The position numbers were made by a program, and so were the translations under genes. DNA of 61,428 bases, filler included, from Sphacelaria rigidula (lineage: Eukaryota), in the NCBI GenBank assembly GCA_964200075.2. It is 9 parts of 9 records of this genome, joined end to end, with 100 filler letters (N's around TTAATTAATTAA, not from the genome) between each part and the next. Parts side by side here need not be neighbours in the genome. Positions count along the whole stretch, not along the records: positions 34,185 to 40,920 come from CAXNAA020018341.1; 8 more parts are not named here. One strand, 5' to 3'. The notes beneath the pieces are model-generated. The model saw only the letters and a program-made list of their open reading frames with translations, did no database searches and was not told where the DNA came from. Below are positions 1 through 54,692 of the stretch, in pieces; within the stretch, counting starts at the first letter, position 1; every line of letters starts with the position of its first letter.

Positions 1-85
1 GCGTGCTCCGTCCCGGCTTTGTAGGGATGTGAGATCAATGGTCTTTTGACTACTTTATGCATGATCATGAGTACACCCACCCCCT
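1..85 (+). mobile_element. 3' end of a 5'-truncated non-LTR retrotransposon (LINE), subfamily B
   Basis: Shares the terminus ...GGGATGTGAGATCAATGGTC...CATGATCATGAGTAC followed by a C-rich run with about 10 other copies in the window. Confidence 0.7.
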
Positions 86-122
86 GTCCTGGCCCCCCAT
101 TCCCTCATCCTCTCCATCCTAG

Positions 123-631
123 GCGGATCCACCGGACCCTCGCCGAAGCCCGAGCCCGCCCCTGCACCCACCACTCCCGAACCAGGACCGGAAGCGCCCG
201 AGCCCACGGCAGAACCATCGGAGATGGAGTACCCGCCTTCCTACTCGTCCGGAACTGAAAGCTACCCTCCTTCTTACGAGTCGATGGAGGACGAGCCGAT
301 GGAAGATGAGTCGACGGAAGACGAGTCGATGGAGGACGACTCGAGAACAACCGACGCGGAACCGACCGAACCCGAATCAACCACTACTTCATCGTCTGAG
401 ACTGCGCGGAGGACCGAGAGGAAATCTGAGAGGAAGTGGGAAGCAAAGTCGGAGACGGACACTGACGAAGTGCGTGTCGAGCCTTTCAGTGAAGAGGTCG
501 ATGGCGGTTGCTCCGCGGTTTGGACACAGTGTGGTGGGACGGAGTGGGATGGGCCCACTTGTTGCGATGACGGTGCGGAATGCGTCGGCAGGGACGATTA
601 CTTTGCTCAGTGCATCCCCGCTAGTCCGTAG
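123..631 (+). CDS. Terminal exon: Pro/Thr/Ser/acidic linker plus C-terminal CBM1 (fungal-type cellulose-binding) module; catalytic domain is off-contig
   Basis: Polypyrimidine tract and TAG acceptor ending at 122; open frame GSTGPSPKPEPAPAPTTPEP...; CBM1 signature CSAVWTQCGGTEWDGPTCCDDGAECVGRDDYFAQC; TAG stop at 629-631. Confidence 0.85.
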
Positions 632-6737: not shown

Positions 6738-6837
6738 NNNNNNNNNNNNNNNNNNNNNNNNNNNNNNNNNNNNNNNNNNNNTTAATTAATTAANNNNNNN
6801 NNNNNNNNNNNNNNNNNNNNNNNNNNNNNNNNNNNNN
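6738..6837. other. Artificial contig spacer N44-TTAATTAATTAA-N44 (also 13575-13674, 20412-20511, 27249-27348, 34085-34184, 40921-41020, 47757-47856, 54593-54692)
   Basis: Identical 100-nt linker with stops in all six frames, separating contigs of 6737 or 6736 bp. Confidence 0.98.
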
Positions 6838-7235: not shown

Positions 7236-7768
7236 TGAGGGGGCGGGGGGGGGGGGAAGGGGGAAGCCAAAAACCAGCAATGAAAAACTTACTTCAGCGC
7301 TCCACAAGACGCCAGGATCGTGAGAAGGGGATGGGTAGAAGAAGGGAGACGGGGAGTGTACAGTGATTTGTTGTAAAAAAAGCATGTGACCAATGGGGCC
7401 CCAAGGAGATGGGTGCAGTAGTGCGTTGAGTTCTTGAATTCCGAGATTGTGTTGGGTAGGGAAAATATTCAGGTATTCACTCCCGAATTTCGGGTTGCGA
7501 TGGTCCGACCATCAAACTCTACTCAAATATTTAGTAGAGGTAGGTACGATCGTATCACGTACTCTATGCAATATCTGGCCAATGTTGGGTACGATCTTAC
7601 TACTATACCCAAATTTTTGGTGTTCAAGAAAGGTAACAACTTTTCATAAACCCCAAATGTAGGAAGCATTCCTCCTAACCAGAACACCCTCGATGATATC
7701 ATCATAATCATAGTCGGCCGGAATGGCTCCCGTACATGTACCTGCAAGTTATCTCTCTGCAATCGCAC

Positions 7769-7932
7769 CTTGCATCCCAGCTCTAGCAGACCGCAGGATA
7801 ACGCCTCGGAGTGCTTTTTAACGTCCGATCTCGTCCACTTGAGATTCCCCTTCTTGTAGCGCACCGCTTCTTTCATCGGGATCTCCGCCGTCACCTCGTC
7901 CAACTTCGCCGCTAGCCCGCCCATAAATCGAC
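7769..7932 (-). CDS. Internal exon, probably the N-terminal part of an AMP-binding / acyl-CoA-synthetase-like protein
   Basis: AG acceptor and GT donor flank RFMGGLAAKLDEVTAEIPMKEAVRYKKGNLKWTRSDVKKHSEALSCGLLELGCK, resembling the P.KEA...WT..E....LA.GL..LG pattern of ANL-family N-termini. Confidence 0.55.
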
Positions 7933-9116
7933 CTGTACATACGTAATCCCCCCCACCCCACATACACCCCACACCCGCGCAACCGCACCCAACCCCGGCG
8001 CGTTGCCGCCCGCCCGCCCGCCCGCACATGTGCACGTCAACATCGCAAGAACAGGATGGTAAAAAATAAACCGTCAAGAATACAAATATATTTACGACAT
8101 ATGGCATTATAGTAGGAACAAGTTAGCAGACTTGGACCACGGTTCCGCTCGGGCGGCTCCAACCAATCGAAAATACTGTCCTTCGAACGGATACTTCCCT
8201 AGCCTTCTCCCCTCAACCCCCATAGTTTTCACGTTCCATTTCCGCACTTGTATGCCCAGAATACGTACGTTTTTTCTCATGCTAGTATCTTCAGGCACAA
8301 CGAGGACGACTCTTGTCAAAATTGAAAATGACTCACTCTCCCTGAGCGACATTTTAGAGCTCCTTGTAAATCACCAAATGCGGACCAGAAACGTGCGCCA
8401 AGAGCTGCTGTGTTTCCCAAAATGTTGTCAAGAAGAACCTGGGAGAATATTCCACAGCATAAGTAGCAAGCGCATTCCTCTCTTTTTGAAAATGGGCACA
8501 ACCTACTCTGGTGAGAGGTGGGAGCGGATATGCAGCGTCGCTGCCGCAGCCCCATTCCTCGGCTTCTGGTGTAACTTCGGGCATATGTACTCGTACGTGT
8601 GTCGATTTATGCACGATACATTGAGGGTATTGTTGAGCATGTCTTCAACACTCGTTCTACTTGTCATGATTCAGTGGTATGCGGGTACCAGGGGCTCTAG
8701 ACACCGGGAAGTATGAACGTACCTGACAAAAAAAATACATGAGCAAATATATCAGGATGTTCACGACTTAGCTTGATAAATACCAGGTGCCAGATTCGCG
8801 GTAAGCCTCACTCAACTAAATACATATTCCACATAGCAACGCAGTATGTGTATTGGCCGAAAAAAAACTGATTCACTTGACGAACTGCAAAAGGTTGAGC
8901 TAACAGCAAGCCGCACGACTCACTTCGGCGTTTATGCTCGACATATGTGTCATACTCCAAAGCGTGTTGTGTACATATATGCCATAACCAAATCAACATT
9001 TCCGATGTATTGTCGTACTACAAAACCGTGGGGATGCTGTAACAGACGCGCGCACATGATCACACAGCGCACACACCTAGACGTAAACGCGAATATCGCA
9101 GACAATATCCTTTAAT

Positions 9117-11507: not shown

Positions 11508-12740
11508 TCAATACAAATCTTCGGTTGAATGCTGTTTGTCAGAGGTCGTCACGCCCAAGAGTCCGACAACATCAACAGTAGAGCAGGATCGGGGCGCGTT
11601 TTTTTGTGACAAATCATCATCGTCCGACCACTCTCGCAAATCACGGCGGTGAAATGTCTCATCATACATGACTGACAAAGGTTCCTCCCGCTGTAGATTG
11701 TGCAAGACGATACACTTGTCTACAATTTCTCGAATATATATATTCTGAATATCCTCCATGTATGACGCACTGTACAGTAGTAGTAGTTGTCCGCGGCTGT
11801 TGACTGCTGTGTCTCTTGGTGCTTCTTGTGAAAACTCTTGCTGCACAAGACAGCACTCTTGTGTACATGAGACAGGAGTGTGTAACGTACAGTACACTAC
11901 GTCGCTAACTAATACCTACCCTGAATAATCCGCGCTGCTGGTGCCGCCACCGCCACCGCCACTTGTGGCATCTTTGGAGCAACAGCCCCGCATTGTCGCA
12001 AGCACACGCGAGCGGTGGAGCTGGTCGCCCGAACTCCCGCCCGTCCAACAAGCGACTGCATTTTTCCTTTTGTGATTCAGATGGGATTAAAGCCAAGACA
12101 ACTCCCTAGTCCCTGCTTGATCAACATACGAAGGGGAGACGGGCGTGACAGCGGTAGTTTGAGGGAGAGCACGAGAATGGGCAATGAGGTGGGCCCGATG
12201 TTACGGAGGGTTGGCGGTTACCCTCCTGCTGAGCGCTAGCGTGATTCTAGCTCGTGTCGAAAATGCAGGACTTTGTCAACAGCGCCGCCTTCACTTATAT
12301 GTGACAATGTTTGCAAAAGGGACCTGTTCCTCTGTTCGCTTGCACGGTCATCAGCGCACAGCAGACATCACTACAGCTTTGAGTGCGAAACACACGAGCC
12401 CGTCGTAACAAAGTAAGGCATGCATGCACCAAGCGTCAGTGTATAAAGCTCGATCTTGGAAACGTTACTCTAATGATATCTCACACCAACCTCTTGAATA
12501 CAGATACCAAATTCACCGAGCGCACTGAACAATGACTCGCTCCGTCGACCCCCCTCTGATCTCTTCGAGGCAGTCGATCCATCACACAACCTGTACGCCG
12601 ATGCGCGTTGCTGTGCTCGATGTGACAGGGGCAGAAAATAGCGCACAATCTTTCGGACACTCGCATACGCATACCTTCGAACGTGGTTCGCTGCGAGGCC
12701 AGGGTGCGGCCTTTCGCTTCCCCTGAGAGTCGACACTGCA
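11508..12740 (-). mobile_element. Possible decayed PIF/Harbinger transposase
   Basis: IREIVDKCIVLHN resembles the Harbinger C-terminal I..C.ILHN motif, preceded by FSQEAPR (compare F...QE..RK); fragmented. Confidence 0.3.
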
Positions 12741-15700
12741 CCCCTTCAATGCTCCCGATTCCCTCGATGGTGTTGGGCTGGTGGTTCGGGTGTTGTTTTT
12801 GTGTTTTAGTCTTTTGTACTTGAACTCGTTTGTTTTAGTACCCGTAGATGGTTAGTATCAGCTCATGGATCGGGTGAGGGCCGAGAGCTCAACTGCACCG
12901 CTTGAAAGTTTCCAAAAGACTATACATTATCAGTAGCCTCATAACATTTCGTTGTGGTAACGACTCGAGAAAGACGGGTGGTCAGGGCTGTTGTTCACTG
13001 GCTAAGGAGGACTGCAATGTGTGGGAGATCCAGGTGGGTAGATCGGAGGTCAGCGATAGATTGTTCTCGGCTCTTCTCCTGGGTCTACATGCACGGGGAT
13101 TCAACCACAACCCTAAACGAGCGCAGAACGTATGCATGTGCCAATTAAGAGCAGTGCCCCCTTGCATTTGATTTTATATCAGCGCGTGGGGATGGATGGG
13201 GGCAAAGAGGATAACAAGGGGTCACGGGGAGATGAAGAGTGGTAGCGAGAAGCCCGTCGAAGAAGGCGGCTTCATGAACACGATTCGCGGGTAAATAACA
13301 GCCGACGGTGGCCAAGGTATAGCGGACAAATGAACAAGGGACAAGCTTAAAGGCTTTTCAAACACCCGCTGTACCAAACTTGTAGCAGAGATACGCCTCG
13401 CATATTGGCATGAATCCTGTCGTCAAGGCCAAGCAAAATACAGTTGTAAGAGTTTGAGTGTGTCGTGGCTGCGCACCGGGATTCTTGTGATGGAGTAGCC
13501 AGACGTTTCGGTGCAATCAAACTATTCCGAATTTATGAATTTATGGTCGCCCAGCAGAGGACCACAGCGCCCCCNNNNNNNNNNNNNNNNNNNNNNNNNN
13601 NNNNNNNNNNNNNNNNNNTTAATTAATTAANNNNNNNNNNNNNNNNNNNNNNNNNNNNNNNNNNNNNNNNNNNNTTGGGGGGCGCATTACGTCCCTCCCC
13701 TGTAGACGAAATATCTCCCCCGTAAAAAAACATTTCGGGAGTGATGCCGCCACCCCCCCCCCCCCCCCCGGTTTTGGCAGCATTTGTTGAACAAGGGATG
13801 ATACGGCAGGGGTGCACAAATATTTTCTGAGGTTTGAATTGTTAGGAGCCCTTCATCTCATCCGAAACACGACCTAAGAAATACGTGAGAGTACGGAAGG
13901 ATTGCTATCCAATGTGCTAGGGATGTCCCGAATGAATCTGCAAACGAGGGTGCCCTGACCCATGTATTCTCGTGCATCTGGAGTCTTTAGGAGCCCCTGA
14001 ACCAGACAAGATTTCGCGCAAAACGTGCACCCCTACCGTAGCATTGCGCTGACGCAGAAATGGTCATGCAGGTACAGCACATGCGAGATGATGGCTACTT
14101 TCAGAAACGACTAATTGGAATTTACTCTGAATGATGCAGATACAAACAACTGGTTACAGAAACGAGTTTATGAATCTTTATTTGAAGAGTGCAGATACAG
14201 CAGGTTCCAGAAACCCGTTCCTGCCATTTCATTTTGAAGAAAGCATATACGAGAAGCTACTTTCAGAAACCAGGTCTAAACACCTCACACATACATGTTG
14301 CCTCGCCCCCCCCCCCCCCATTACACTTTTCAGGGAAGGAGGCTACCGCGGGATCACTCGTGGGGTCCGAGAAAGTCATGTCACCCAGGCGCCGTAGACA
14401 CAGTTACCTACGGTACACGTTTTGAGACGCTCCCGACCACCGTACTGTGTGCCGTGCGTTAGCTAGCCAACCGGCAGGCTCGTGAGGTATCGAAACGCGA
14501 TGCCCTCTGTCTCTGTCTCTGTCTCTGTCTCTCACCCCATGGCCACGTAGTTACCGTCCGGGCTGTAGTGTATGTTCATGTTCTCCCCGTCCGACGTGTA
14601 CGATTGTGCGGCAGAGCCCGGCGATCGAACATCCCAGATCTGAGAATGATATACGGACCGGACCGGACCGGATCGGACCAAAAGGGAATGGTAAGAGCAC
14701 TCTTTGCTTTACTTGAACGGAAGACTAGCTGATACCGCGGGTGTCGTGCTGTGAATGATGGTCTGGTCGTGGCGTCTGGTGGGTTTCTGTGGACCTTAGC
14801 GTGGAGCACACATAGAGTTGATGATGGTGGTGGACGAATCTGCATCTGTTGTATGCACCTAGCGACCAACTACTTCGTGAAAAAAGCAGAATGACAGAGT
14901 TCACTTGCTCGTTGCCAATATTACTAACGACAAATGCTGCACGGGGCGCACCAAACACGTGAAGACAACACGACGGGCCAAGGGCGCGGTAAACACACAC
15001 ATATATAAATATATATATAGAGAGGGAGAGATGTATATAACCACGATTTTTTTTTAACGCGTTTTGGATGACCGCCCGAAAACAATGATAACTCGACAGT
15101 CAGCTTGCAAGACGGGCAAGACGGCACGTGTATGCCTTTATCTTCTTCGAGGGACATTCTCCTGAATGTTCAATAGATTGGTTGATTATCATGCAGTGAT
15201 CGATCCGGGCTGGCTTCATCACTAGACCCAAAACTGTTGTCTCCAGCGATTGTTCACTCCAGGTTTGAGAATTAGGACCTGAAATGTTGAGATGAGCGCA
15301 TCGACCTTTCGTAGGCCCTCATTAGGAGGTGATTATATATGCTTTCCCCTCTTCGGAATTACGTCAATCGATGTGACGTTCGAAACAAAATATCCACTTT
15401 CATACCTCCCCAGGGAAAAAACAAACAAACACTGCTAATGATGCTTTATTTTCTGTTCCGTCCTGTTTGCGCCTCAGGCACGTTTTTAGGGGTCAAGTAG
15501 TCGGACTATTAATAGCCCATAGACAAACTAGGGGTTCACATCCGGAAATCACTTGTTGAAGGAAACTCGAGGAGAGGGGGGTGGGGATGTGAGCACGACC
15601 AAAAAAATAGACAAAAACAGACTGAAACAGACTGAAACGAGAGGGGGAGGGGGAAAGGTCATAATGTAAATGCCAAATGCTTCAACACGTATCGTGAAAG

Positions 15701-15884
15701 ATCATTAATCCCAAAGCACTCTGACAAACAATGCAACAACAACAAAAATAGAGGGGAAAAAAGACCACACAAAACATAAATCATCACATTATCCACACCC
15801 CGCACCTGAACAACTCGCAGCAAAACATCTGCATTGTGTGTCTGCCTGGCGTAAATCAAGTGAAACACACAAGACGAAAAAGGC

Positions 15885-16010
15885 AAAGCAAAAACAATGA
15901 CAAAACAATGACAAAAAAAGTGACGTACAAAAAATGACAACAAATGACAACAAATGACAACAAATGTCAACAAATGACAAAAACAAAAACAAAAACAAAA
16001 ACAAAATGAC
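15885..16010. repeat. Intronic simple repeats (CAAATGACAA)n and (AAAAAC)n
   Basis: Seen directly in the sequence. Confidence 0.85.
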
Positions 16011-16030
16011 GGGAAAATTGGAGCCCACAC

Positions 16031-16139
16031 CTTGAGGGACTTGTCCGTGGCACAACTTGCTATTTGGTTTTGGTCGGTAGGGGAGCACGCTATCGCCTCC
16101 ACCTTCTGCTTCTCATGAGCGATGAAGTTTGTCTTCACC
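16031..16139 (-). CDS. Internal exon of a WD40-repeat protein
   Basis: CAG acceptor and AAG|GT donor; peptide VKTNFIAHEKQKVEAIACSPTDQNQIASCATDKSLK matches the WD40 pattern AH...V..I..SP....IAS...D..LK. Confidence 0.75.
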
Positions 16140-17817
16140 CTGCACGCCACACACAACAAAAGCGCGTAAGCAAAACGGCGAGCATGGGAGGCAAGGGTTT
16201 CTATCAGGTGGCATCATGATACATCGTTATGTCAAAATAGATCGAACATCATCTCCCATGTTCCTACACGATAAACGCCGAAATTGGTGTGATGTAGAGG
16301 TAGAAAGGGGCGCTAAAGAGACAAAGGGTAATCAAAGAGGCTCCATCTTGTGTCCTTCATGACTTCACGCCAACTTATCCGGACAATATACATATATATA
16401 TATATAATTATATATACGAGTGCATTGAAACCGGGTTGCATGTGCGCGTTGTTTGAGCTGTGTTGGACTAAACAGCGACGTTTCTGTCGGACAAAAATAG
16501 GCGGATTTGAATGTCATTTCGGAATATTTTCTACCGCCATCCTTCTATGCTCCTCATCATGCCACGCACCAAAGAGTGCAAGAAAATAACTCTCGAATCT
16601 TAATGCGTTGTACACTGAACTATAGTTTTATTAACCCATGCTTTCGTGTGAAATGACTTGTCGGTGGCAGGCTCATTTTTTTTTTTCTTTGTCCCTTCCT
16701 GGAAGGACGGAAGAAACCTGACCCAGCACTTACCCCGCCCGCAAGCGGGTTCGTGTTCCGACTACCCGGAGGCTCGACTACACTGCCTCACGGTAGCCAT
16801 GTGGGGCAGGCGCCTCGAGCGCTCAAAAGTTTTGCTCAAGGCAGTGTGGGGATTCGACCCACTAAACCCCCCCTTCAACTTGGATCAGTGCACGCCCCTC
16901 CCCACTCTTAGCAGCTTCGGCCATAGGGGCAGACTTATCTTGCAACAACTTACCCCCCCCCCACCCCCCTCCCTTACACACTCAGCCCCTCTACACGGTG
17001 GATGCACCTGCTGTTTCCGTGAGAGTCCACGTCCCACAGCACCATCCACCCATCGCTGGACCCCATCGCAAGCTTCCCATCGATGCACCACGCAATGGAG
17101 TATGCCTGAAGACGATATCATACCAAGCGACGCCATCATCGGGTACAGTGTACACTGTCAATATATACAGCAGCAGCAGCGAGCACATCAAGCGCTGTGC
17201 GCAGGAAGGGATGCAGTTTACCCCGGATCAAAAACAAAGACATGCAGCAAGAGTAAGCTGAGACCGCGTGGATTACATCCATTCCGGATACTCCCCCCCA
17301 CGCATCCTTCCCCCTCCCGCCCCCCCCCTGGCTGCGAGCGCGGGCGGGGCGCNNNNNNNNNNCGGCACTAAACAAAAACCACGGACCACGAGCGCTGCCA
17401 GCCCGCGGGTTGTTACTTCATTCTTTTTTTCCCCCCCCCCCCCCCCCCCTGTTCGTGACGAGCGACCTTGAGTTTGTTCGGTATACTCAATGTAAGTTAA
17501 GCTCATGGTGACGACGTGTTGACTCTCTGTGTAGTATTGCTTGATACCTTGGATGGGAATTTACACGGGAATGCACGGACTACAACGTGGCAGCAGCCAG
17601 AAAGAACGACACCATTGCCTCCAGGGGTAACGGTCACGTAAGGGTACAGTAGTCCGCGAGATTTCACCGTGACGCAAAAAAGATGCGCACTTGACTTGAT
17701 TTCCGACAACGCGCAGTGATGCCCACCTACTCCACACACTTGTACTGCAAAAAAAAAAAAATGGTGAGACGTGTGAAGGGGGTGCTTCGTACAGCTGCAA
17801 AAGTCTGGGTAATCTTG

Positions 17818-20411: not shown

Positions 20412-20511
20412 NNNNNNNNNNNNNNNNNNNNNNNNNNNNNNNNNNNNNNNNNNNNTTAATTAATTAANNNNNNNNNNNNNNNNNNNNNNNNNNNNNNNNN
20501 NNNNNNNNNNN

Positions 20512-24885: not shown

Positions 24886-25329
24886 CTGTGGACGCGCGCA
24901 CCCCCGACCCCGCGCCCCCCAACCAAAAAACAATAAGTACACAAAACGAAACAAGAAGGGGGAAAAAAAACGGGACCACCGGTAAAAAAGTCGAGAGATC
25001 AGATAAGGCTGTCAGTCAGAATCAATGAGTTGGAAAGTCAGTGAGTTTCGACACAAGATATGCCGCGAGTCAAGGACTGTCGGGGCATCCAAGCCCGGAA
25101 CGCGTCGATTCGACTAGGATGGGACCTCTTAAATGCGATACGAGCAAACATCGGCTGTCTTCGTGTAAGGCCTCAGCTTTTGAGGGAGGATTGAATCACG
25201 GGTGAAATTCATTTGTACAGTACGTGGAGTGCCAGCCGATATCCACCACCTTGAAAACGGCCGCCCCAAAATAGGGACATCGAATATCACCGTTGAGAAC
25301 GTCAAAGTGATACTGTACTCTTTACTCAC

Positions 25330-25461
25330 CTCGACCATCTCTGGCGGCAAGTAGTCCAGCGTCCCGCACATAGTGTTGCGGCGCGAGTTGGGCGCGTGTA
25401 CGCTCCAGCCGAAGTCGGCAAGCTTTAGTCCTCCCCTCGAACCTATAAGCAGATTCTCCGG
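25330..25461 (-). CDS. AUR: Aurora kinase exon 3 of 6 visible (activation loop)
   Basis: [44 protein letters not shown] contains the Aurora signature DFGWS...[15 protein letters not shown]. Confidence 0.95.
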
Positions 25462-25969
25462 CTGCTTCAAGGAAACGCCCACATCAAACAAGAAGAGAAG
25501 AAATGCAAGGCGAGTGAGAGAGTGCAGTGTATAGTGCCATGATCCATGCTTCACTCACGAAGTCTACACTGAGTTGCTCCGCCGTGCCGAATCTGCCAAG
25601 CACTGTATACTGTCGGAGTACCTCCAACAAATATATGACACCGACACCCAAGAAGTACCCCGTGCGTACATGTACCAGTCTACCTGCAAGTATCAACAAC
25701 CTCCAACGAAGTTATTTTTCGAGACTCGCCCTACGGACCCTGTTAAAACCAGCCCCCCCGCCCGCCCGCCCCCCGTATCTCCATCCTGCCCCGTTAAATC
25801 ACTCCTTCAGGTCGTACCCATCGCATATCAATCGTTCTCGGTTCACATACATGCCGATCGGAAGCGAAACCACCGTCTTCTCCGAACGAGCTGCAATCCT
25901 CGCATCCCTTCACCCCATCACACCAAGATAGTCACACAGACTCTGCTAGGGCACAACGTAAATACACAC

Positions 25970-27166: not shown

Positions 27167-27784
27167 TCCCCCCTCCCATCCCCCCCACCCACGGCACCCT
27201 CTCCTCCTCCCAATAACCTTTTTTTCACCCCCTCCCCCCCCCCCCCCCNNNNNNNNNNNNNNNNNNNNNNNNNNNNNNNNNNNNNNNNNNNNTTAATTAA
27301 TTAANNNNNNNNNNNNNNNNNNNNNNNNNNNNNNNNNNNNNNNNNNNNCCCTTAACTCACGAGAAGAAACAAAAAACCTCAATGTGCTTCTTCACGACTT
27401 TTTATCATGCCCCATGCATTATCCATACCAAATCATAGGGTCTTAACTCCAAATATTGGCCAGCGCATCCGCCTTTTAAGAACCGGATCGGTAGACATTC
27501 GGAACAGTATTTCGCAGGCCGCTCACCGGCCCACGTTTGGTTTTTGGGTATTGCAAGTTTGTGTGGGCCCCCGCCACGGCATAATTAACAAAACTTAGTG
27601 GACCAGATTTTTTTCACTCATTTCTTCACTGGTTGAGGGCGTGTTAGTATGGTGAAGACCATGTTTATAAGAACGCTCTAACCTCTATGGGAAAAAAGAA
27701 CGAAGGCCCATTTTTTTGTTGGGCACTCTTCTGCGGTTCGGCTAAATGCATAAATCGATAGTTTCACGGAGATTTTAGTATTGG

Positions 27785-34084: not shown

Positions 34085-34184
34085 NNNNNNNNNNNNNNNN
34101 NNNNNNNNNNNNNNNNNNNNNNNNNNNNTTAATTAATTAANNNNNNNNNNNNNNNNNNNNNNNNNNNNNNNNNNNNNNNNNNNN

Positions 34185-34316
34185 GCGCTTCGCAGTTGTT
34201 GGTTTGTGTGCATGCCTGGTCCCGCTAAACCCCGGCGTGCTCCGTCCCGGCATTGTAGGGATGCGAGGTCGATGTTCTTATGACTACGGCATGCATGATC
34301 ATGAGTACACCTCCCC
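34185..34316 (+). mobile_element. LINE subfamily B 3' end
   Basis: GCGTGCTCCGTCCCGGC...CATGATCATGAGTACACCTCCCC. Confidence 0.75.
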
Positions 34317-35560
34317 GGTTTGTTTGTTTCTTTCTCCGTCTGTTATTGGCAATTGTTTTCCGAGAAAACTGTGAAATGTTCCGTCGCCAATACCTCACGA
34401 AGAAAAACAAAACGGGAGAAACGAAGGGGTGTTGGCACATACGTCCTGTACATCATGTGAAGATATCACCGAAAACGACTACAAATTGAGCTCGGAAATT
34501 GCGTCATCCACTCGAAGTCTGATTCCCATGTGAAAATGGAACCTCAGCCGGAAGTTCGCCTTTGACTTGTCTTTTTCCACCTTCGGCTAGGAGGTGTTCA
34601 CAAACTGGTCGTTGGTTCGCACACTACCACCAGACGCCTTGGTGCGCTGCGGGCCTCGTGCCATCTTGGATACTGCGCGCCTAGTGCGACATGTGTTGTT
34701 GTACGATCGTAGCTTGTGCGGCGCCACGCGGCACAACCCACTGTAATTGAAAATCCTATTTCAGCTGTTTCCTTTCGGCCAATTCCGTCGCACATGGTAC
34801 CGTCAACTCTCTACACTTTCGCCCTTGACTACAGTATCGTATTGCATTTGATGAGTCCTTGTCGGATTGCAGTGCTTCATGGATTCGAAGATGCGCGTTG
34901 ATTTGCCGAAAACCATGATGTGTCATGGTGGGAACAACTCGCGACACATCGTCTGTTAGAACGGGCTGAAGGAAAGTGAGCTTCTTAGGTGGTCCAGCTT
35001 GTATGGATTTTGGATTCAAGTCTTAATTATGACGTGAGGCATATTTCACCCCACGATCCTGGATGAGCCTCAAAAGTCGTGTCTGTTCGTGTCTGTTCGT
35101 GACTGTGGTCAGTGACACTTTTTTTGCCCATTGTGGGGGATCAGGCACACTCATGGTAGTGTCGCCCAATAAACATGTGTGCAGCAAGCCTGCATGCGCC
35201 AGGGACGCTTCATGTTGTCGCGACGTGACGCCCTCGGCTCGGCGACACTTCCAGGCTCTCTAGCGACAAGCTGAATTGACCGTTGCTAGCCATACTGTAC
35301 ATGAAAAAATTGTGCAAACCGTTTTGTCGACCTGCGACAGTTTTAACCTGGTGTGTACTAACTAATACCTAGCCATTCCCTCTCTGTGTGCTTTCGGCTG
35401 CCACTTCCCGCCGCTGCACAGACAAGGCCGACGTAGCGCCAACTCTTGCAGTGCATAGCTCCTGAGACGTGTGGTTCCGCCAGGGCTGCTCTCGCAGATA
35501 CCGCTGTGTACAGTTGAAGGCATCGATCAGGCGAAGCTTGATTCTTGGCACGCCTTTCAG

Positions 35561-37432
35561 ATGTCTTCGACTTGCTCCTATATCGGGTGCTCTAAGCTGG
35601 CGTCGTTCGGATCGGAGAACTCTACACAACCGGAGTTCTGCTTCAAGCACGCTGAAGACGGCATGGTGTGCATCAGGAAGACCGACTGTTGTTGGCACGA
35701 CGGCTGCTCTATGACCCCATCGTTCGGCCTGGCGGGTGCCAAGAGGCCAGATTTTTGTGCGAAGCACGCGAAGGAAGGCATGGTGAACGTGAGGGGAAAG
35801 CGTTGTTCCCACAACGGTTGCTCGAAGATGCCGTCTTTCGGGTTGGAGAGCAACAGGCCGGAATTCTGCTTGGAACACGCGGAGGATGGTATGGTGAACG
35901 TATGTGGTAAGAGGTGCTCCCACGAGGGCTGCTCAGGGCGGCCCTCACATGGCTTGGGGGGGACTGGAAGGGCAGAGCTTTGCTCAGTTCACGCTCAGAA
36001 GGACATGGTGCGCGTGAGGACCGAGAGATGCAGCCACCGCAACTGCTCGAAAATACCGTATTTTGGTGTGCAAGGCTCACGGACTGCGGAGTTCTGCTTG
36101 GAGCACGTCGAGGAGGGAATGGTGGGTGTGAAGCGTCGGGTGTGCTCTCATGAAGGCTGCTTGAAGATGCCGTCGTTCGGATGGGAGGGCTCCACCGAAG
36201 TGAAGTTTTGTTTCACGCACGCCCAGGAGGGCATGGTAAACATCAAGTTAAGGAGGTGCTCCCACGAGGGCTGCCTTGGTCATCCTTGGTATGGGGTGTT
36301 GGGGTCTCGAAAGGCGGAATTCTGTTCGCAGCACGCCGAGAAAGACATGGTATTCATCAAGAAGAATAGAAAATGCTCACACGAGGGCTGCTCGAAGAGA
36401 CCGACGCATGGTGTGCTTAGTACCGGGAAGAGCGAGCTCTGCGCACAGCATGCCAAGGACGGCATGATGAACATAAATTCCAGGAAGTGCTCCCGCGAAG
36501 GTTGTTTCAAGGGGCCGTCGTATGGTTTTGAAGGACAGAAAGCAAAGTTTTGCTCCTTGCATCGCGAGGAAGGCATGGTGCGCGTACGTGTCCAGAAGTG
36601 CCTCAAAGAGGGATGCTTGAGGAGGGTACTATACGACGGCAAGGCTGGGCACAACGATGGGTTCTGTTTCAGACATGACGAGAACAGCATCGCGAAACTG
36701 AAGAAAAGGTGCTCCCGCGAGGGCTGCTGGAATAGAGCGATATTCGCGGTACCGGGTTCCGAAAGTGCGGAGCTCTGCTCTCGGCACGTCGAGGATGGGA
36801 TGGTGAACGTTGTGGTCAAAAAGTGCGCGCATGAGGGTTGCCTCAGGTGGCCGATTTATGGCGTGAAGGGTACGAGGAAACCGCAGTTCTGCAAGCAGCA
36901 CGCAGCGGAGGACATGGTTAACGTCAAGACACGCAAATGCTCCCGTGAGGATTGCCCGAAGACAGCGTCATTCGGCTTGAAGGGCACCACACGAGCGTTG
37001 TTCTGCTCTGAGCATGCTGAGGAGGGCATGGTGGACGTGAAGCACTCAAAGTGCCCCCTCGAGGGCTGCAACAAGCGATTGACGCATGGGGTGAGGGGTA
37101 CAAAAAAAGCGGAATATTGCTCGGTTCATGCGAAGGAGGGCATGGTTGACGTACGTTGCAAGAAGTGCTCCTACGAGGGCTGCTTCAAGCAGCCAACTTT
37201 CGGGCTGGAAGGCACGATAAGCGCCGTGCGGTGCTTGCCGCACGCCGAAGACGGTATGGTCAACGTGACAGCGAGTCACCGCTTGAGGCACGCCGAAGAC
37301 GGTATGGTCAACGTGACAGCGAGTCACCGCCGCAAGGACGGAGCGGAGAAAATGGACGGGCCAAAACAAGCCAAGATAACCTCCGGTAACGATCCAGTTC
37401 GTTTTTCCAAAAGGATACGACTACAAAAATGA
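35561..37432 (+). CDS. EsV-1-7 cysteine-rich repeat protein (15 tandem Cys3His repeats, basic C-terminus)
   Basis: Uninterrupted ORF with repeats C-x4-C-x3-P-x-[FYH]-G-x8/9-[FLY]-C-x2-H-x3-[GD]MV, matching the EsV-1-7 motif; ATG at 35561 directly follows TTTCAG, so an upstream exon is possible; the frame is open from 35471. Confidence 0.92.
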   Translation: MSSTCSYIGCSKLASFGSENSTQPEFCFKHAEDGMVCIRKTDCCWHDGCSMTPSFGLAGAKRPDFCAKHAKEGMVNVRGKRCSHNGCSKMPSFGLESNRPEFCLEHAEDGMVNVCGKRCSHEGCSGRPSHGLGGTGRAELCSVHAQKDMVRVRTERCSHRNCSKIPYFGVQGSRTAEFCLEHVEEGMVGVKRRVCSHEGCLKMPSFGWEGSTEVKFCFTHAQEGMVNIKLRRCSHEGCLGHPWYGVLGSRKAEFCSQHAEKDMVFIKKNRKCSHEGCSKRPTHGVLSTGKSELCAQHAKDGMMNINSRKCSREGCFKGPSYGFEGQKAKFCSLHREEGMVRVRVQKCLKEGCLRRVLYDGKAGHNDGFCFRHDENSIAKLKKRCSREGCWNRAIFAVPGSESAELCSRHVEDGMVNVVVKKCAHEGCLRWPIYGVKGTRKPQFCKQHAAEDMVNVKTRKCSREDCPKTASFGLKGTTRALFCSEHAEEGMVDVKHSKCPLEGCNKRLTHGVRGTKKAEYCSVHAKEGMVDVRCKKCSYEGCFKQPTFGLEGTISAVRCLPHAEDGMVNVTASHRLRHAEDGMVNVTASHRRKDGAEKMDGPKQAKITSGNDPVRFSKRIRLQK

Positions 37433-38098
37433 GGCGTTTCGGTTGTCGTCGTTGAGACAAATGGTTCACGGGGAGTAGATGTATGGCCATTCTCTTTTGA
37501 ATGAAGTTGGGACGCAACTAATACCGTACAAATTTAGAGTTTCACGTACCATGTGACGGAGGGGGTACACGAAAATCCGCAAGCGTGGTAATGGTGCTAA
37601 CAAGTTGGACCACGGGCGAACCGTTCGATCAGAAGGCGAGAAAAATCTATCAGCATTTCGTCACGTCTCGGGGGAGAACGACCCCTTGGTTTGATAATCG
37701 TCGCACGACTCAGTCGCACATCGGGCGCATGGCCTGGGGGGGAGCAGAAGACCCAATTCGTATGTGTTCCGTCTCCCGCCCTTCACTGTGGTCACGGGGA
37801 GGTTATCTTGTTACCCGCTCACAAGGATCACTACACCGTGTGGCGTATTGGCATGATGTATGGACTCGAGTAATCTTTTTCGCGATTAATCGGGTATTTC
37901 CCCATGTGCGGGTCTGTGTGCAGTCGTCAATGGTGGTTGAAAGTTCCCTTTTCCTCGAATGTGTCGTTGCTGTACACACCTTCGGCGTGTTGGCGTCAAG
38001 GTATCGAGGGGTGGAAAAAGCTGCCCAGACAACTGAAGTATTCAACATGTGGATTGTCCAGAGATCGCTGCCTGCCCCGGCAGCTTGTTCACAATGAA

Positions 38099-40360
38099 TG
38101 AAGAGATGGTTTATTATCGGGAAACAAAAGAGAGTGACCCTCGAGGGGATCAAGAACTCCCACCTACAATGCCAAGAACCACACATCAAGCCAATCTCCC
38201 GCGGGATATTCTCAGTCTACAGTATCTCCCGCGGAACATTCTCAGTCTCGTTCTGGATAACGTTCCTTCCTACGGAGGCTTCCAAAGAAACATATCTTAC
38301 ACTACCCCGAAAGATATCTGCGAATAACAAGGGATATTACAAATTGGGGATGGATCTTTTATTGGGGATGAGAAGCCCGGAGAATTAAAATTTTCGTATC
38401 CCCACCAAATATTCGAAATATGGTTTCATTTCTTCACCTACTGATGGCTATTGACACCTGCTACACCCCATACAAATTTGGATTTTGATCACCGAAATGT
38501 TGGGGTCCTAGGAAAAAGCCAACTTTGGGGAATTCCGGGTGTCCCTTCGGACGCCAAAATGGTTCCGAAATTGGTTCTTCACCTTGGACCCCAACATTTC
38601 GATGATCGAAATCCAAATATCTATAGGGTGTAGCAGTTGTCAATAGCTATTAGTAGGTGGAGAAATGGAACCATATTTCGAAGATTTGGGGTGGATACGA
38701 AGATTTTAATTCTCCGGGTTTCTCATCCCCAAGAAAAGATCCATCCCCGAATTGTAAGATCCCGTGTTGTATGCAGAATTGACCAACATACGAACACCCT
38801 CCCTTGGGCATTTGCTACATCAACAAGTAGCTTTCTTTGATCAACTCTCAGAACTCTTGACAAATAGATATCGCTTCACAATACCCAACGAAAAATTTCG
38901 ATGGTGGACGAAAGCTCCGCGAGGTAACGCTTTGGTCAGAATATCAGCGTGTTGCTCGTTACTCCGTACGTGTTCCAACGTTATCCTCTTTTTGTCCACT
39001 AACTCCCTCGGAAAATGATGACGAATATCTACATGCTTGCTGTTGGACGAGCTTATTGGATTTTCAGGTAAAGCAATCGCACCTTCGTTATCCTTCAACA
39101 CCCTGGTGGTCCTTGCTTCCCTGTCAACTAAAAGGAAATCCACAATGCCGTCTACAAACAAAGCTTTTTTGACACCATCCCCCATAGCCACATACTCTGC
39201 TTCCGTGGTCGAAAGTGCAACGCCCTTCTGCGCCCTGGAGTACCATGCTTCTGGTGATCTACCACACAAAACTGCACCACCCGATACCGATTTCCTCGCC
39301 TCGTCATCCTTCCCGTGGTTCGCATCCACGTACGCTGTTGTTCTTACGTCTACACCAGGTCCTACACGATATGTCAGCCTTAAGTCCACCGTTGAATGCA
39401 GGTAGTCGAAAATCTTTTGTACTACCTTCCAGTGGGTTTCCTTCGGGTCGTGCAAGTGTCGCGCCACGGCTCTCACTGCGTTGGAGATGTCAGGTCTGGT
39501 TTGATTGGCAATCCACATCAAACAACCCGCCATTTCGCGAAACGGCACATTCTTGACACCTGTGTCGTCATTCACCTACCTGAAATTCATAGAAGTAGAG
39601 GCGGAAAGAGAGCTGGAGCGGCAAATATCAAAACGTTCAAGTGCGCTTCTAATGTAATTGTCTGTGGTAACTCAATAACCCTGTTCTCTCCTTGCCACGC
39701 TTGTACTCCACTCCCATGTACCATGTGAGATCGCTTAGATGCTTAGTTGGCAGTGTGTCATTTAGTGCTTCCACTACTATCTTACCCACACGTGCCCCTC
39801 CAAAAATGATATAATCTACATGCAGAACGACTGCTCCTACCAACTTACCATCCACTAGCAATCGCAATAGACATGGATCCGACACATGGATCCGACAGGC
39901 ACTGTTCGAAACCAATTTTCACCAGTCTCGACACTAACATTTTGTAGAATTATCTGGCAACCTGCTTATCAAGTCCATAAATGGATCTAATCAGGCGGAC
40001 AATTTTTCCTGACATTGATCCGCAACCTGGGGGCAGCCTCATGTATATCTCATAGTCCAAATCCGACTGAATGAACGCCTGCTCGACGTCGAAATGACTA
40101 AGACCCCATCCATACGTGTTTGGCAACGCTACGGGGAAACGAATTGTTGCAGCACTTGCAGGAGGTGAAAACACCCCCAGGAAATCAATCTCGTGCCGTT
40201 GATTAGAACCTTTTGCTACAAGCCTAGCCATTGCCTTCAAGATTTCGCCGTTGACATCAGTTTTCCACTTGATTACCCATTACTGAGCGTTCACTATGTC
40301 ACTCCCTTCCGGAACCGATCCTACTAAGGTGAAAGTCCCTGCAGCAACCCCTTGAACTCT
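38099..40360 (-). mobile_element. Degenerate Ty1/Copia element (RT, RNase H, PPT, 3' LTR)
   Basis: ARLVAKG...HFDVEQAFIQSDL...RSIYGL; SDPCLL...HVDYII; TRPDISNAV...YVDANH...STTEAEYVA...SKHVDIRHHF...QHADILTKAL; PPT AAGGGAGGG (38797-38805), then LTR TGTT...AATAAA...CA at about 38796-38099. Confidence 0.92.
38328..38766. mobile_element. MITE with about 180-bp TIRs inserted in the Copia 3' LTR
   Basis: CAAGGGATATTACAAATTGGGGATGGATC... versus ...GATCCATCCCCGAATTGTAAGATCCCGTG. Confidence 0.85.
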
Positions 40361-42983
40361 AAATTCATAGCCCCCTCCCAAAGGTCAGCATGTGCAGAGG
40401 CGCGGGCTTCGGCAATCGTTGTGGGCTCTGGCTTTTTGGTACACCCATGGACAGATAGCACCTTGTGGGGCGCACTGTGCAAGGTCCGTACAGGATCCTC
40501 CACAGTCTTTGTGAAAAAACCCTGAAAGTGAAAAAATGCAAAATCTGTACCCCTCGTAGCGTTTTGATGGGGGTTTCCCCAGGGTTGGATTTGCAGCCCT
40601 GTGTAGGCACGTCAGCAAAGCCCTACACAGTCATGTGGTAGTGTTTTGGTGGAAAAACCTCAAGTTTTTCTTTTGAAAATTTCAAATATTTTGGTACAAA
40701 ATCTGTAAATTAATATATAACAGCCGTTTTTTATTTTTTATTTTTATTTTATTTTGGGGTTCAACACTAAAATGGGGCTGAAGTCGCATTTCTCTCTTGC
40801 AGGGAAGATAAGAAACAGTAACACAGAGCGAAAGTATCTTCCCCCCCCAAACTCCGCAGGAGGACTTGACCGTCAGACCGCGAGAGTAGGTCACCTGCTG
40901 AATCGGCATCAATATTCACTNNNNNNNNNNNNNNNNNNNNNNNNNNNNNNNNNNNNNNNNNNNNTTAATTAATTAANNNNNNNNNNNNNNNNNNNNNNNN
41001 NNNNNNNNNNNNNNNNNNNNCGAAAATCTTTGAGAAACTAAGAAATTACGGATTCTGCATACTTCTGACGCTGACTACTGTAGCAACAAGCACTCTTGCA
41101 CATACTCTCATCAACCGGCATCCCGCGGCCCAAGCCATTGGCGTGACGCGAGACAGGGCGTATGGACGGGCCATGCGGTGAACGTGCGGAGGTGTGGATC
41201 TCCAGAGACTCGAATTGCCGTGGTCCGTGCGTCCAATTTCCGCGTGATGCAGTTTGGAAGCACAGGGCTTGCTGTAATTGGCACTCACGCTGCTCTGGGG
41301 CGACAGGTTTTTCGTGTGTGCATACACAAGGCACAACCGACCTGCTCGTGGTGTCGTCGCTTCGAATGCAATACCATAGCGTTTTTATAATTGTTCAAAG
41401 GCGGAGTTTCGTAGGTAATATGCATCCGGAAAAAGCAGGCTATCGGTGCCCCCCATATCTGGGGTACAGATGGAGTGACGCTCAGGGCAGTGCAACGTGT
41501 CTCGAAGATGAGTGCACAGAGTTGCCAGTGCAGAAACACGCCGTGGTAGATGTACACGAAAGCAGTTACCTTGAGGAAGGAGGGTCAGGCGTGAACAACA
41601 GGTGGAGAACAAGCGTACGCGTGAGGACAGAGCTCCAGAAACACGCAAAAGCCAATGTATCGACAAATACGGCACAAACTGCCATAGCGGATTTCACGAC
41701 ACATGAATATGGTGCTACAATTATTTAGCCGATGGCTGAAGTGAGCCTTGGAGTGAAACTTCAACCAAGATAATACGAACCGAGCGAAGCTGTCTTTGTC
41801 CAGAACGTGTTCCGCAGTATAATGAACGTTTCCTTGGTTTACGCACAAATATGCAACTTTAACAAAATACACCAACCACGCTGCGAAAACGGAAATTTGT
41901 ACGCCCCGTTCACAATTTTCAACCGTACCGCGAATCTCTGTTGCCGTGTCGTGCCGTATCGTGGAACAGATTATGCGTACCACGTTAAACCGTGCCGCGA
42001 CAGTGCAAATACCGATAACAAACGGGTTCCCACAATGAACTCACCATAACAAATCTGCTGCAATCGTACTATGTGTGGCCCAATGTGCAAATTGCCCCCA
42101 TTTCTCGGAGTAATATTTGTTGTCTTCAAGGTCCTTGCTATTGAGGCCGCTTCCTTTAATGCGACGACTAAGCAAAAGGTCGGCCAGTGACAGTCTTCCA
42201 AAGACAGCAGTTTCCGAAACCGTCTTGTACACCTTCGAAAACAAGTTGGTGCGTATGCCCACCCACCGTGATCCTTGAAATTGACAACTTGGTGTGCGAA
42301 ACAGCGGCCGCTGCACTGTCCGTTTTCCATAGCTATGTACTACACTGTCCCATCTGCACGGCAGCACTCCACGTACCCTGCAGTATGCTGCTGCCGTTGT
42401 GCCGCATGCACATACTGAACAACTATGTGCCACACCTGTGGGTACCGGGTGTACAGTTGCACAGCGGCACGGGTCGCAATGTAACGTTGCTGCATCGTAC
42501 ACTGTGCTGTCTGTTCTTGAAATGAGCCGCCGTATCTTTATGTATGTACCATCTGCACAACTCGCCGTACCATGCTTGATGGGAGCATTTTCGTGCTCCC
42601 CCGGGTCGACAAACTTGATTTTTTCGATAACAGTCGTTTCCCTCAACCCAATGGGGGCGAAAAGCATCTATTGGGGGCAATCCACATTCGGAGACGTTAT
42701 TTATCCATCTCTGGAAGGTCCCATAGAAACTGCTCTAGCAACATCTGAGTCAATCACCGGAAACACGTTCGTCAGACGGATGTTGTTGAACCAAAAGGAG
42801 CGGATTTGGAAGCGGTTGTTCAATAATAGTGTGCGCGTGTTTCGTCCTCGTATGCGATCACGGGTCTCAGCAAAGAAAATTCAAGTATCGAGTGAAAAGG
42901 AAACAAAGGCGTGAAGAAAACCGTCAACGTGCAAGGGGTAATAGCCGGCGACGTGGTGGAGCTTCTTGTTTGCACCTGGTTAA

Positions 42984-47756: not shown

Positions 47757-47867
47757 NNNNNNNNNNNNNNNNNNNNNNNNNNNNNNNNNNNNNNNNNNNN
47801 TTAATTAATTAANNNNNNNNNNNNNNNNNNNNNNNNNNNNNNNNNNNNNNNNNNNNTTATTGCCAAG

Positions 47868-53715: not shown

Positions 53716-54692
53716 TCCGCGCGCCGTGCTTTCACACGCTCACAACCCTTGGTTGCCCGAACACACGCAGAGCCGACTCTCAAGTGGCACGAAACGGCCT
53801 GCCAACCCTCGGGCCGGCCTCTGGCCCGTCCCGACGCTGCCTGCCCTGGGTGACATTCGACCATCTCCTGAGGCTGTGGGGCACCCCGGAGCTGACAGAA
53901 AGGGCGGCCCACGATTTTTTCTTCAACGTTCGTTGTTTGTCGCCATCAATATCACGCTTGAGGCTGTTCGGAGCGTTTTCGGGGTGTCTTCCACCAGCAG
54001 GAGCGGAGCATACTTTTGAGGTATATGCGTGTCAACGTGTCGCTCGAAGCGTGCGGAGCTGCCCGTCACTAGAGCTACAGTACTTACTGCGCATGACAAG
54101 TTAGTCATACACGAAAAAGGAGAGAAAAAGGGTCGGAGTGGCAAAATGGAAAGACTTGGATCGCATCGACTACTATTATACTTCGCAGTCAAAGGGTTCA
54201 AACGCAAGCGCGCCACGGCACTTGGTCATCGTGTATGTTGTGATCGATGCGGACCCAATTTCAACACTATCATGAGTGTGTCTTCCTTTAGCTTGGTAGT
54301 GCAGTACTGTGCGATTAATTGCCCCCTGCATCAATAGCGATAGTAACAACAGCAACGACAACAAAGAAAATGGATGATGGTGCTGAGTGATTTCGGAACA
54401 CTACAAGTGCATGATCCGTGCACAGGGCGAAGCGAGGGGTACTCGACAGACGAAGCTGTTCGTGGGGTGAGTGTTGGGTCACGTTTCCTCCTGCCTTCGA
54501 AGAAAAAAAAAGGGGGGGGGGGCGACGTGAGGAAGGGTGCCCTCGGTATGGGGGGGGGGGGGCGACGGCAGTTGGCTGTTGGCGGGACGATANNNNNNNN
54601 NNNNNNNNNNNNNNNNNNNNNNNNNNNNNNNNNNNNTTAATTAATTAANNNNNNNNNNNNNNNNNNNNNNNNNNNNNNNNNNNNNNNNNNNN

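Follow-up and report, generated by a model that had tools for sequence, protein, structure and literature searches.

An intact gene at positions 35561..37432 (+, stop codon included) of a 61,428-nucleotide stretch of Sphacelaria rigidula DNA (assembly GCA_964200075.2; hereafter the window) was found to encode a 623-aa protein built from 15 tandem EsV-1-7 Cys3His repeats. The protein is an intact, array-only member of the EsV-1-7 family (Pfam PF19114), ordinary for that family and standing at the long end of its range of repeat number. Comparison of repeat sequences indicates that the modules do combine a fixed scaffold with sites that vary from repeat to repeat, the variable positions being 9 and 11, which flank a conserved proline, together with 35-36 and 24. 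We tentatively propose that such arrays bind nucleic acid, mainly DNA, by a zinc-finger-array mechanism, a reading of the combined analyses that we hold to be possible though short of probable.

Architecture and family membership of the array

Searching the predicted protein against Pfam returned PF19114 (EsV_1_7_cys) as the sole family at E≤1, scoring 627.2 bits where the cut-off is 25 (E 1e-193) over 14 stretches. A score so far above the cut-off places the match far beyond chance, and family membership is near certain; the proposal of an EsV-1-7 Cys3His array, made in an earlier note from the DNA sequence, was therefore borne out. The regular expression C.{3,5}C.{12,20}C.{2,3}H located 15/15 units, starting at aa 5, 43, 82, 119, 157, 195, 233, 272, 310, 347, 384, 422, 460, 498 and 536, which correspond to window positions 35573, 35687, 35804, 35915, 36029, 36143, 36257, 36374, 36488, 36599, 36710, 36824, 36938, 37052 and 37166 (+). 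Together with the alignment it delimits an array at 35573..37279 (+), in which units are spaced 37-39 aa apart and carry the ligand pattern C-x4-C-x14-18-C-x2-H in 15/15 cases, ten of them in the canonical x16 form within a 38-aa unit. The single uninterrupted open reading frame (ORF) of 15 adjacent repeats described previously, with 623 open codons, was thus recovered, as were the invariant C, C, C and H (15/15 units) and the nearly invariant GMV (M 14/15, V 13/15, G 11/15; exact GMV 10/15). The module is small, cysteine-rich and probably zinc-binding.

The linkers are K/R-rich, as had been noticed, with K or R at alignment columns 36, 38 and 39 in 11/15, 9/15 and 11/14 repeats, and the protein as a whole has an isoelectric point (pI) of 9.1, 105 K+R vs 69 D+E (net about +36) and 49 Cys. 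Repeat 10 (36599..36709, +) is degenerate: it keeps its CCCH ligands, lacks Pro10, Gly13 and GMV (SIA instead), shows 19% identity to the reference repeat, and is probably the unit that Pfam left uncounted among its 14/15 stretches. A 48-bp tandem duplication at 37233..37330 (+; 2 copies, 96% matches) copies the last part of unit 15 in frame, so that …HAEDGMVNVTASH occurs twice, and gives a partial 16th match of the repeat hidden Markov model (HMM). Since positions 37283-37306 are bridged by none of the listed sequencing-run contigs, this duplication may be either genuine or an artefact of assembly. The array is followed by a basic C-terminal tail of 50 aa (37280..37429, +; pI 11) that matched no Pfam family and none of the viral-type domain described below; K[KR]x[KR] matches lie at aa 267 and 617, the latter being the KRIR motif of the tail. 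Between repeats, nucleotide identity averages 57% (maximum 70%), the mean proportion of synonymous differences (pS) is 0.69 and mean aa identity is 43%, and from the first two means it follows that the repeats are old and not recently amplified.

Length-matched homologs numbered 284 at E≤1e-3, the best being 40% identical, and named homologs came from Sphacelaria, Laminaria, Pylaiella, Scytosiphon and Ectocarpus at 33-50% identity. With a single-repeat profile, metagenomic cluster representatives numbered 6,676 at E≤1e-3, and 3,583 were reached at E≤1e-10. In the best 150 of them, 15 stretches occur once and 14 twice, and the maximum among 120 length-matched homologs is 11; because one of the best 150 has as many, 15 repeats mark the top of the usual range and are not unique. 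One 941-aa homolog (P0050) was seen to combine two Helicase-associated domains (HA, PF03457) with 7 EsV-1-7 units. Several others (P0003/P0007/P0047/P0060) gave overlapping sub-threshold matches to PF24906 Zf_WRKY19 where repeats begin, and the ESM Atlas holds viral clusters with Zf_WRKY19 beside the viral C-terminal domain; the EsV-1-7 and Zf_WRKY19 finger types may be related or interchangeable.

Published passages agree with what the earlier note had stated, namely that the family has expanded in brown algae, occurs in giant viruses too and includes Ectocarpus IMMEDIATE UPRIGHT (IMM). A 2024 preprint gives more than 2,000 curated members in brown algae and a lineage-specific expansion in tandem gene clusters, and passages of a further report describe viral affinity, stage-specific expression with a preference for unicellular stages such as gametes and spores, and Ectocarpus members without any other Pfam domain (10.64898/2026.04.27.720984). 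The IMM mutant has a developmental phenotype, and the passage concerned still describes the gene's product as of unknown function (PMC7457493). Citing work attributes the idea of a zinc-finger transcription factor to Macaisne et al. 2017; within such passages this broad idea is already in print and a per-repeat code is not.

Repeat-variable positions and candidate functions

Five residues ending at the aromatic/His position had been proposed to vary freely, and all 15 of the strings listed for them are correct. This block corresponds to module positions 8-12, with entropies of 1.74, 2.87, 1.38, 2.15 and 1.46 bits over the window's 15 repeats, and has K in 9/15, P in 10/15 and an aromatic residue or His in 15/15; alignment columns 16, 19, 20, 26, 37 and 38 are as variable as the block, or more so. 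Across 464 canonical repeats from 120 homologs, the family scaffold comprises C1, C6, P10, F/Y12, G/N13, G16, F/Y22, C23, H26, G30, M31, V32, N/D33 and V34. Per-position entropy in the window follows that of these repeats (Spearman 0.73), with repeat 10 departing from the scaffold. Free variation was thus upheld for positions 9 and 11; Pro10 and the aromatic position 12 proved to be scaffold, and positions 35-36 and 24 had been missed. In sum, the entropy comparison supported a scaffold with variable sites, the variable set being different from the five-residue block.

Arrays whose repeats remain alike were examined among 86 arrays with at least four canonical repeats and the viral C-terminal domain, of which 28 had a mean intra-array identity of at least 0.60. 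In these 28, difference by position was greatest at 11 (0.72), 36 (0.72), 9 (0.68), 35 (0.56), 24 (0.49) and 33 (0.48), the other non-ligand positions lying at 0.01-0.38. In six viral arrays the proportion of nonsynonymous differences (pN) exceeded pooled pS (0.364) at positions 9, 11, 24, 35 and 36 only, on small counts to which no significance test was applied. Among the window's own repeats the ratio of nonsynonymous to synonymous divergence (dN/dS) had a median of 0.29 with saturated dS, 25/105 pairs lying at pS of at least 0.75. The dN/dS comparison across paralogous repeats that had been suggested was therefore run and proved uninformative, synonymous sites being saturated (mean pS 0.69).

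Searches with the whole protein returned no viral relatives; the single-repeat profile found them, at 10 loci in IMG/VR contigs. At 10/10 of these giant-virus loci the array ORF also carries a conserved domain of ~180 aa, which is C-terminal in the eight loci where the end was read. The array-plus-domain loci comprise L001 (domain at 8130-8681) and L002-L010, among them L005 (domains at 8469-8999 and 12627-13157), with arrays of 4-15 units; the ORF at 4838-7084 of L004 has 15 repeats. The domain was present in 117/237 of the array proteins retrieved and stood behind the array in 231/234 domain matches, preceded by 0-12 repeats in the protein sets and by 15 in L004. Proteins that carry it number at least 2,444 and are 73-322 aa long; the 120 listed have 0-4 repeats ahead of the domain, and a 212-kb record (G001) holds a single copy. 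Locus L005, on a giant-virus metagenome-assembled genome contig, has two paralogous array-plus-domain genes within 5 kb (7428-9005 and 11826-13163). The repeats of the first share ~81% identity, most of their differences falling at positions 7-11 and 35-38. Within a limited literature search, which is thin evidence of absence, no report of this viral architecture was found.

An alignment of 44 diverse members of the viral domain revealed invariant D (of RPD), E-x-D-E, H, R, R-x-N-P and R, in the overall pattern RPD...E-x-D-E-x-Q-H...R-x-N-P-D. Pfam, PHROGs and sequence sources supplied no name for it, and tblastn gave no phage match. The ESM Atlas yielded no structure for it; its neighbours there are, with few exceptions, clusters of Nucleocytoviricota, and one of these bears the automatic name 'Endonuclease (Fragment) family protein'. 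Pfam Hjc matched 2/10 members at E 0.18-0.2, and the Hjc resolvase 1gef in the Protein Data Bank (PDB) matched at E 0.97, with RPD falling on the catalytic VD and E-V-D on E-V-K. A bacterial DUF559 cluster scored 0.82 by ESM language-model features; Pfam DUF559 itself did not match the viral domain, record G001 included. By hhalign the domain aligned to Escherichia coli YcjD at P 0.00065 (probability 28%) and to a 24-sequence DUF559 alignment at P 0.0012 (19%), or at P 0.0064 (6%) with 84 domain segments, compared with P 0.62 for a reversed control and P 0.039 for the best of 20 column shuffles. These likenesses, weak though mutually consistent, make a nuclease-type fold somewhat more likely than not for the viral C-terminal domain.

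Under the mechanism that we propose, each module would fold round one zinc ion to form a small strand-rich knuckle, and the modules, strung on K/R-rich linkers, would bind nucleic acid, most likely DNA, so that the protein would act as a nuclear regulator. Contacts would be made through exposed residues 9 and 11 on either side of Pro10, and through linker positions 35-36, the array working like a polydactyl zinc-finger protein and not like a transcription activator-like effector (TALE) with a simple code. In giant viruses the arrays would be N-terminal targeting modules of the conserved C-terminal nuclease-like domain. Passages on the Ectocarpus Tc1/Mariner transposase TcMar-2_Ec32 place an EsV-1-7 domain at its N-terminus (PMC12477816), and in that one element the array would be the corresponding transposase module; algal array-only genes would represent the same binding module minus the enzyme. 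The support that these fusions lend to nucleic-acid binding is indirect.

The ligands and charge of the array might otherwise suggest that it binds RNA, with a role in RNA processing, stability or translation, and we consider this improbable. Cys3His ligands occur in many RNA-binding fingers, the linkers are basic (pI 9.1), and expression of the family is, according to the published passages, preferential in gametes and spores. However, the fusion partners are DNA enzymes or resemble them, the spacing C-x4-C-x16-C-x2-H is unlike the classical C-x8-C-x5-C-x3-H, and Pfam zf-CCCH was not matched.

Structure prediction was in keeping with a flexible chain of modules. The full-length AlphaFold2 model (59 sequences) had a mean predicted local distance difference test score (pLDDT) of 71.6 and a predicted template modelling score (pTM) of 0.40; most units reached a pLDDT of 80-94, whilst unit 7 and units 9-11 were poor, with pLDDT below 50 over aa 326-398. 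In each unit DSSP placed strands of three residues at 12-14 and 31-33, a bridge at position 22 and, at C-x2-H, a helix of a single turn; a three-unit fragment model was of middling confidence (pLDDT 70.1). The low pTM of the predicted model fits beads on a string and not a solenoid. The resemblance to TALE or pentatricopeptide repeat (PPR) arrays claimed in the earlier note accordingly extends to the tandem modules and no further, the AlphaFold2 model consisting of short strands and one-turn helices, with pTM 0.40 and no helical solenoid. Foldseek against the PDB gave a best E of 0.65, its rows (E 0.65-8) including the nsp13 zinc-binding domain, LIM, PHD and IBR. With VIA-align the highest Z over 48,161 chains was 3.8 (rmsd 3.1, 66 residues), with RING, U-box and B-box at Z 2.5-3.8 and none at 5 or above, where Z below 8 may mean only a common arrangement. 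No PDB chain matched the protein or the repeat profile at E≤10. The fold searches thus yielded no usable match and lent no support to any known zinc-finger fold (best Z 3.8, Foldseek E 0.65).

The same structural results bear on whether the array is a protein-protein scaffold comparable to LIM, RING, B-box or ZZ domains, whose variable surface would pick partners and whose influence on gene regulation would be indirect. Its structural neighbours, all weak, are RING, U-box, B-box, LIM, PHD and IBR, many hydrophobic residues occur at variable positions (L, M, I and W at position 9), and a pTM of 0.40 fits a flexible multi-site adaptor. Yet no fold match had a meaningful score, the protein is strongly basic, and the arrays precede a nuclease-like domain and, in another fusion, a transposase, a position usual for modules that target DNA; on balance we regard a protein scaffold as rather unlikely.

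Pairs of residues at positions 9 and 11 fell into 140 types in 707 repeats, the top six making up 29%, and it is because of this spread that no small TALE-like code is apparent. The alphabet of the variable sites is, as far as these sequences indicate, closer to that of C2H2 fingers than to TALE repeat-variable di-residues. A strict one-repeat-one-unit code, by which the target could be read from the 15 modules as in TALE or PPR proteins, would suit the fixed 37-39-aa period of the tandem repeats, the prominence of positions 9, 11, 35 and 36 in recently amplified arrays, the 0-15 repeats before the same viral domain and the combinations that recur across viral loci (e.g. RKIPN, RKQPS/T). It sits poorly with the diversity of pairs just described, unlike that of a few-letter code, with a predicted array that is not a rigid superhelix (pTM 0.40) and with the many other positions that are equally variable in the window protein. 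We therefore give such a code little credence.

Several observations weigh against the zinc-finger-array mechanism itself. Variability in the window array is spread across many loop positions, and since synonymous sites are also saturated, site-specific selection cannot be shown. The exposure of residues 9 and 11 is presumed from alternation around Pro10, and the sole structural neighbours, very weak ones, belong to zinc domains that bind proteins (RING, U-box, B-box and LIM). A search for a colinear orthologue found none: in the six nearest homologs the repeats do not follow the order of those of the window. The viral domain was absent from all six frames of the window (two HMMs, hmmsearch --max, E≤10; one negative-score row), phmmer did not return the window protein (P0001), and the domain was likewise absent from 13/13 brown-alga-named and 9/10 nearest homologs. 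Because the window protein is without the domain, the fusion argument amounts to guilt by association across distant relatives. The nuclease leads, moreover, fall below usual significance (hhalign 6-28%, HMMER E 0.2-1, ESM below 0.9), and the viral C-terminal domain may not be a nuclease.

The function of the family is of more interest than this particular gene, and IMM shows that EsV-1-7 proteins can control development. The idea of a zinc-finger transcription factor becomes more testable with variable sites at 9, 11, 35 and 36, with a nuclease-like domain that occurs in about half of the array proteins retrieved, essentially those of viruses, and with the transposase fusion. Should DNA binding prove true, the rules of recognition could well be deduced from long arrays like that of the window. 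A bolder version, which we regard as a long shot, is that EsV-1-7 arrays constitute a third natural modular DNA-recognition array beside C2H2 and TALE, which would have originated in giant viruses as targeting modules (0-15 units) of a PD-(D/E)xK-type nuclease, then been taken up by a Tc1/Mariner transposase and, without the enzyme, multiplied in brown algae as developmental transcription factors, with each 38-aa module reading a short DNA step via positions 9, 11 and 35-36. Were that so, the 15 modules would specify a target of perhaps 30-45 bp that might in time be predictable and re-engineerable.

Gene structure, origin and genomic setting

The stop-to-stop frame runs from 35459 to 37432 (+), with the first ATG at 35561, giving 623 aa plus stop. 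Contigs from two sequencing runs (X5 and X7, two samples of one study) match the window from 35421 on and carry 136 and 119 further letters, respectively, that are unlike the window upstream; that these runs, as well as X8 and X9, are RNA is a guess only. A contig of the DNA run X1, by comparison, spans 34963-36868 without a break. Depth in X5/X7 is 1.5/0 over 35263-35416 vs 56/66 from 35417, whereas that of X1 stays near 30. The point of contig divergence, 35421..35422 (+), is a probable 3' splice acceptor of an intron in the 5' untranslated region (UTR), reading …ttcccgccgctgcacag before the cut and a after it, with a pyrimidine tract and CAG. These observations give a weak hint that the transcript of the gene has a 5' leader joined by splicing, with its first exon located elsewhere. 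The untranslated part of the coding exon would be 35422..35560 (+). As the frame is closed there by a TAG at 35456-35458 and the first ATG of this part comes only at 35561, no exon further upstream could extend the protein in this frame, and the start stays at 35561. Contigs of X5 (37307-37754) and X7 (37307-37995) continue beyond the stop, and 37433..37995 (+) is a likely 3' UTR of approximate extent. No poly(A) tract or remnant was seen after the gene. Contig joints inside the array (e.g. 35934 to 36699) were considered as splicing and rejected, their sides being 20-42 letters long and probably due to paralogues or graph collapse.

The earlier note had argued from the lack of introns to a viral or retroposed origin. 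Although the coding sequence is uninterrupted, the RNA-like contigs diverge at 35421, and neither a poly(A) remnant nor a viral domain accompanies the gene, so that the argument is not supported for this copy; the link to viruses at the level of the family stands. That the gene might be a decaying viral insert or a functionless retroposed copy would be compatible with its intronless coding sequence, with a family common to giant viruses and with the repeated elements that flank it. All 623 codons are nevertheless open and none of the 60 ligand residues has been lost, the repeats still keep their scaffold in spite of their age (pS saturated), RNA-like contigs suggestive of a spliced leader cover the gene, and the 6.7-kb piece holds no poly(A) remnant, no viral-type domain and no other viral gene. 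We consider a dead copy highly improbable.

The window joins nine pieces of ~6.7 kb from the assembly, separated by spacers of the form N44-TTAATTAATTAA-N44 at 6738-6837, 13575-13674, 20412-20511, 27249-27348, 34085-34184, 40921-41020, 47757-47856 and 54593-54692; short N10 gaps also occur inside the pieces. Because neighbouring pieces need not be genomic neighbours, only 34185-40920 is real context for the array gene. Within it the gene is unique DNA between repeated elements. The upstream flank (34185..35262, no strand assigned) is high-copy repeated DNA with a summed X1 contig depth of 4,000 to 2.6 million vs ~30 over the gene. The downstream flank (38035..40920, -) is likewise repeated (X1 depth 2,000-870,000) and contains pieces of a Ty1/copia-type retrotransposon, including an ORF at 39953-40279 (-) that matched Pfam RVT_2 (E 2e-21) and another at 38841-39575 (-) that by eye resembles the neighbouring part of pol, Pfam giving no match there. 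The most abundant flank element, of 44-90 bases around 34231-34316, is present also in the run of a second organism (organism B, X10), which includes one identical 151-base contig at depth 2. A Pfam scan and six-frame searches with the domain HMMs found no viral domain or other viral gene in the piece 34185-40920, and no second EsV-1-7 gene was found in the other pieces of the window.

Those other pieces contain isolated exon-like or transposon fragments at 71-628 (+), 4057-4641 (-), 25132-25554 (-) and 15662-16213 (-), with matches to CBM_1 (E 2.7e-9), RVT_2 (E 2.8e-26), a protein kinase segment (E 1.5e-9) and, weakly, WD40, which fits a eukaryotic genome rich in both introns and transposons. 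Antisense open frames of 112-191 aa overlap the array (35369-37420, minus strand); two were tested against Pfam with 0 matches, and they look like by-products of a repetitive, G+C-rich coding strand.

Comparison with known systems

The closest relatives of the window protein are the brown-algal EsV-1-7 proteins (PF19114 / IPR043822), with which it shares the repeat, the CCCH spacing and the organization in tandem arrays without other Pfam domains; it differs in that its best match is 40% identical and not colinear, and its 15 repeats lie at the top of their range. IMM orthologues are defined, in the 2024 preprint, by an IMM-specific N-terminal domain followed by five repeats. By that description the window protein is set apart from IMM, having 15 repeats and, since its first repeat starts at residue 5, no N-terminal domain of the IMM type.

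Giant-virus arrays (e.g. L001 7071-8684 and L005 7431-9008) display the same scaffold, C.HEGC.K.P.[FY][NG]..G....[FY]C..H...GM[VI][ND]V, with a period of 37-38 aa. They differ in possessing the ~180-aa C-terminal domain, absent from the window protein, and in three of the six viral arrays (L001, L010 and L005b) the repeats have 74-81% aa identity vs a mean of 43% in the window. The viral domain in turn weakly resembles DUF559/Vsr-like and Hjc-like PD-(D/E)xK nucleases in a hydrophobic strand ending in D, followed after ~13 residues by a strand with E-x-D-x-x-Q-H, for which the counterparts in the alignments are VVVELDGGQH in E. coli YcjD and VD...E-V-K in Hjc; this likeness is limited to 19-56 columns and an hhalign probability of 6-28%.

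Classical CCCH fingers of the tristetraprolin type have the spacing C-x7-8-C-x5-C-x3-H and bind RNA, and Pfam zf-CCCH gave no match in the window protein at E≤1. TALE and PPR proteins are helical, metal-free solenoids of two-helix units with a few-letter code. The window array is like them in its fixed-length tandem modules and in having few positions that differ between otherwise similar repeats, but its modules are Cys/His-rich and, as predicted, strand-rich without helix pairs, with a pTM of 0.40, no small alphabet and no match to their Pfam families.

Polydactyl C2H2 proteins, whose fingers have the spacing C-x2-4-C-x12-H-x3-5-H, differ from the window array in ligand pattern (CCCH, C-x4-C-x16-C-x2-H), in period (28 vs 38 aa) and in their long recognition helix, in place of which the window model has only 3-residue turns at C-x2-H; zf-C2H2 was not matched at E≤1. 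In other respects the two are alike, sharing small tandem modules (probably zinc-binding in the window array), basic linkers, a conserved scaffold and few variable, presumably surface, positions in diverse combinations, as well as a flexible beads-on-a-string arrangement in the predicted model and, according to the published passages, lineage-specific expansion in tandem gene clusters.

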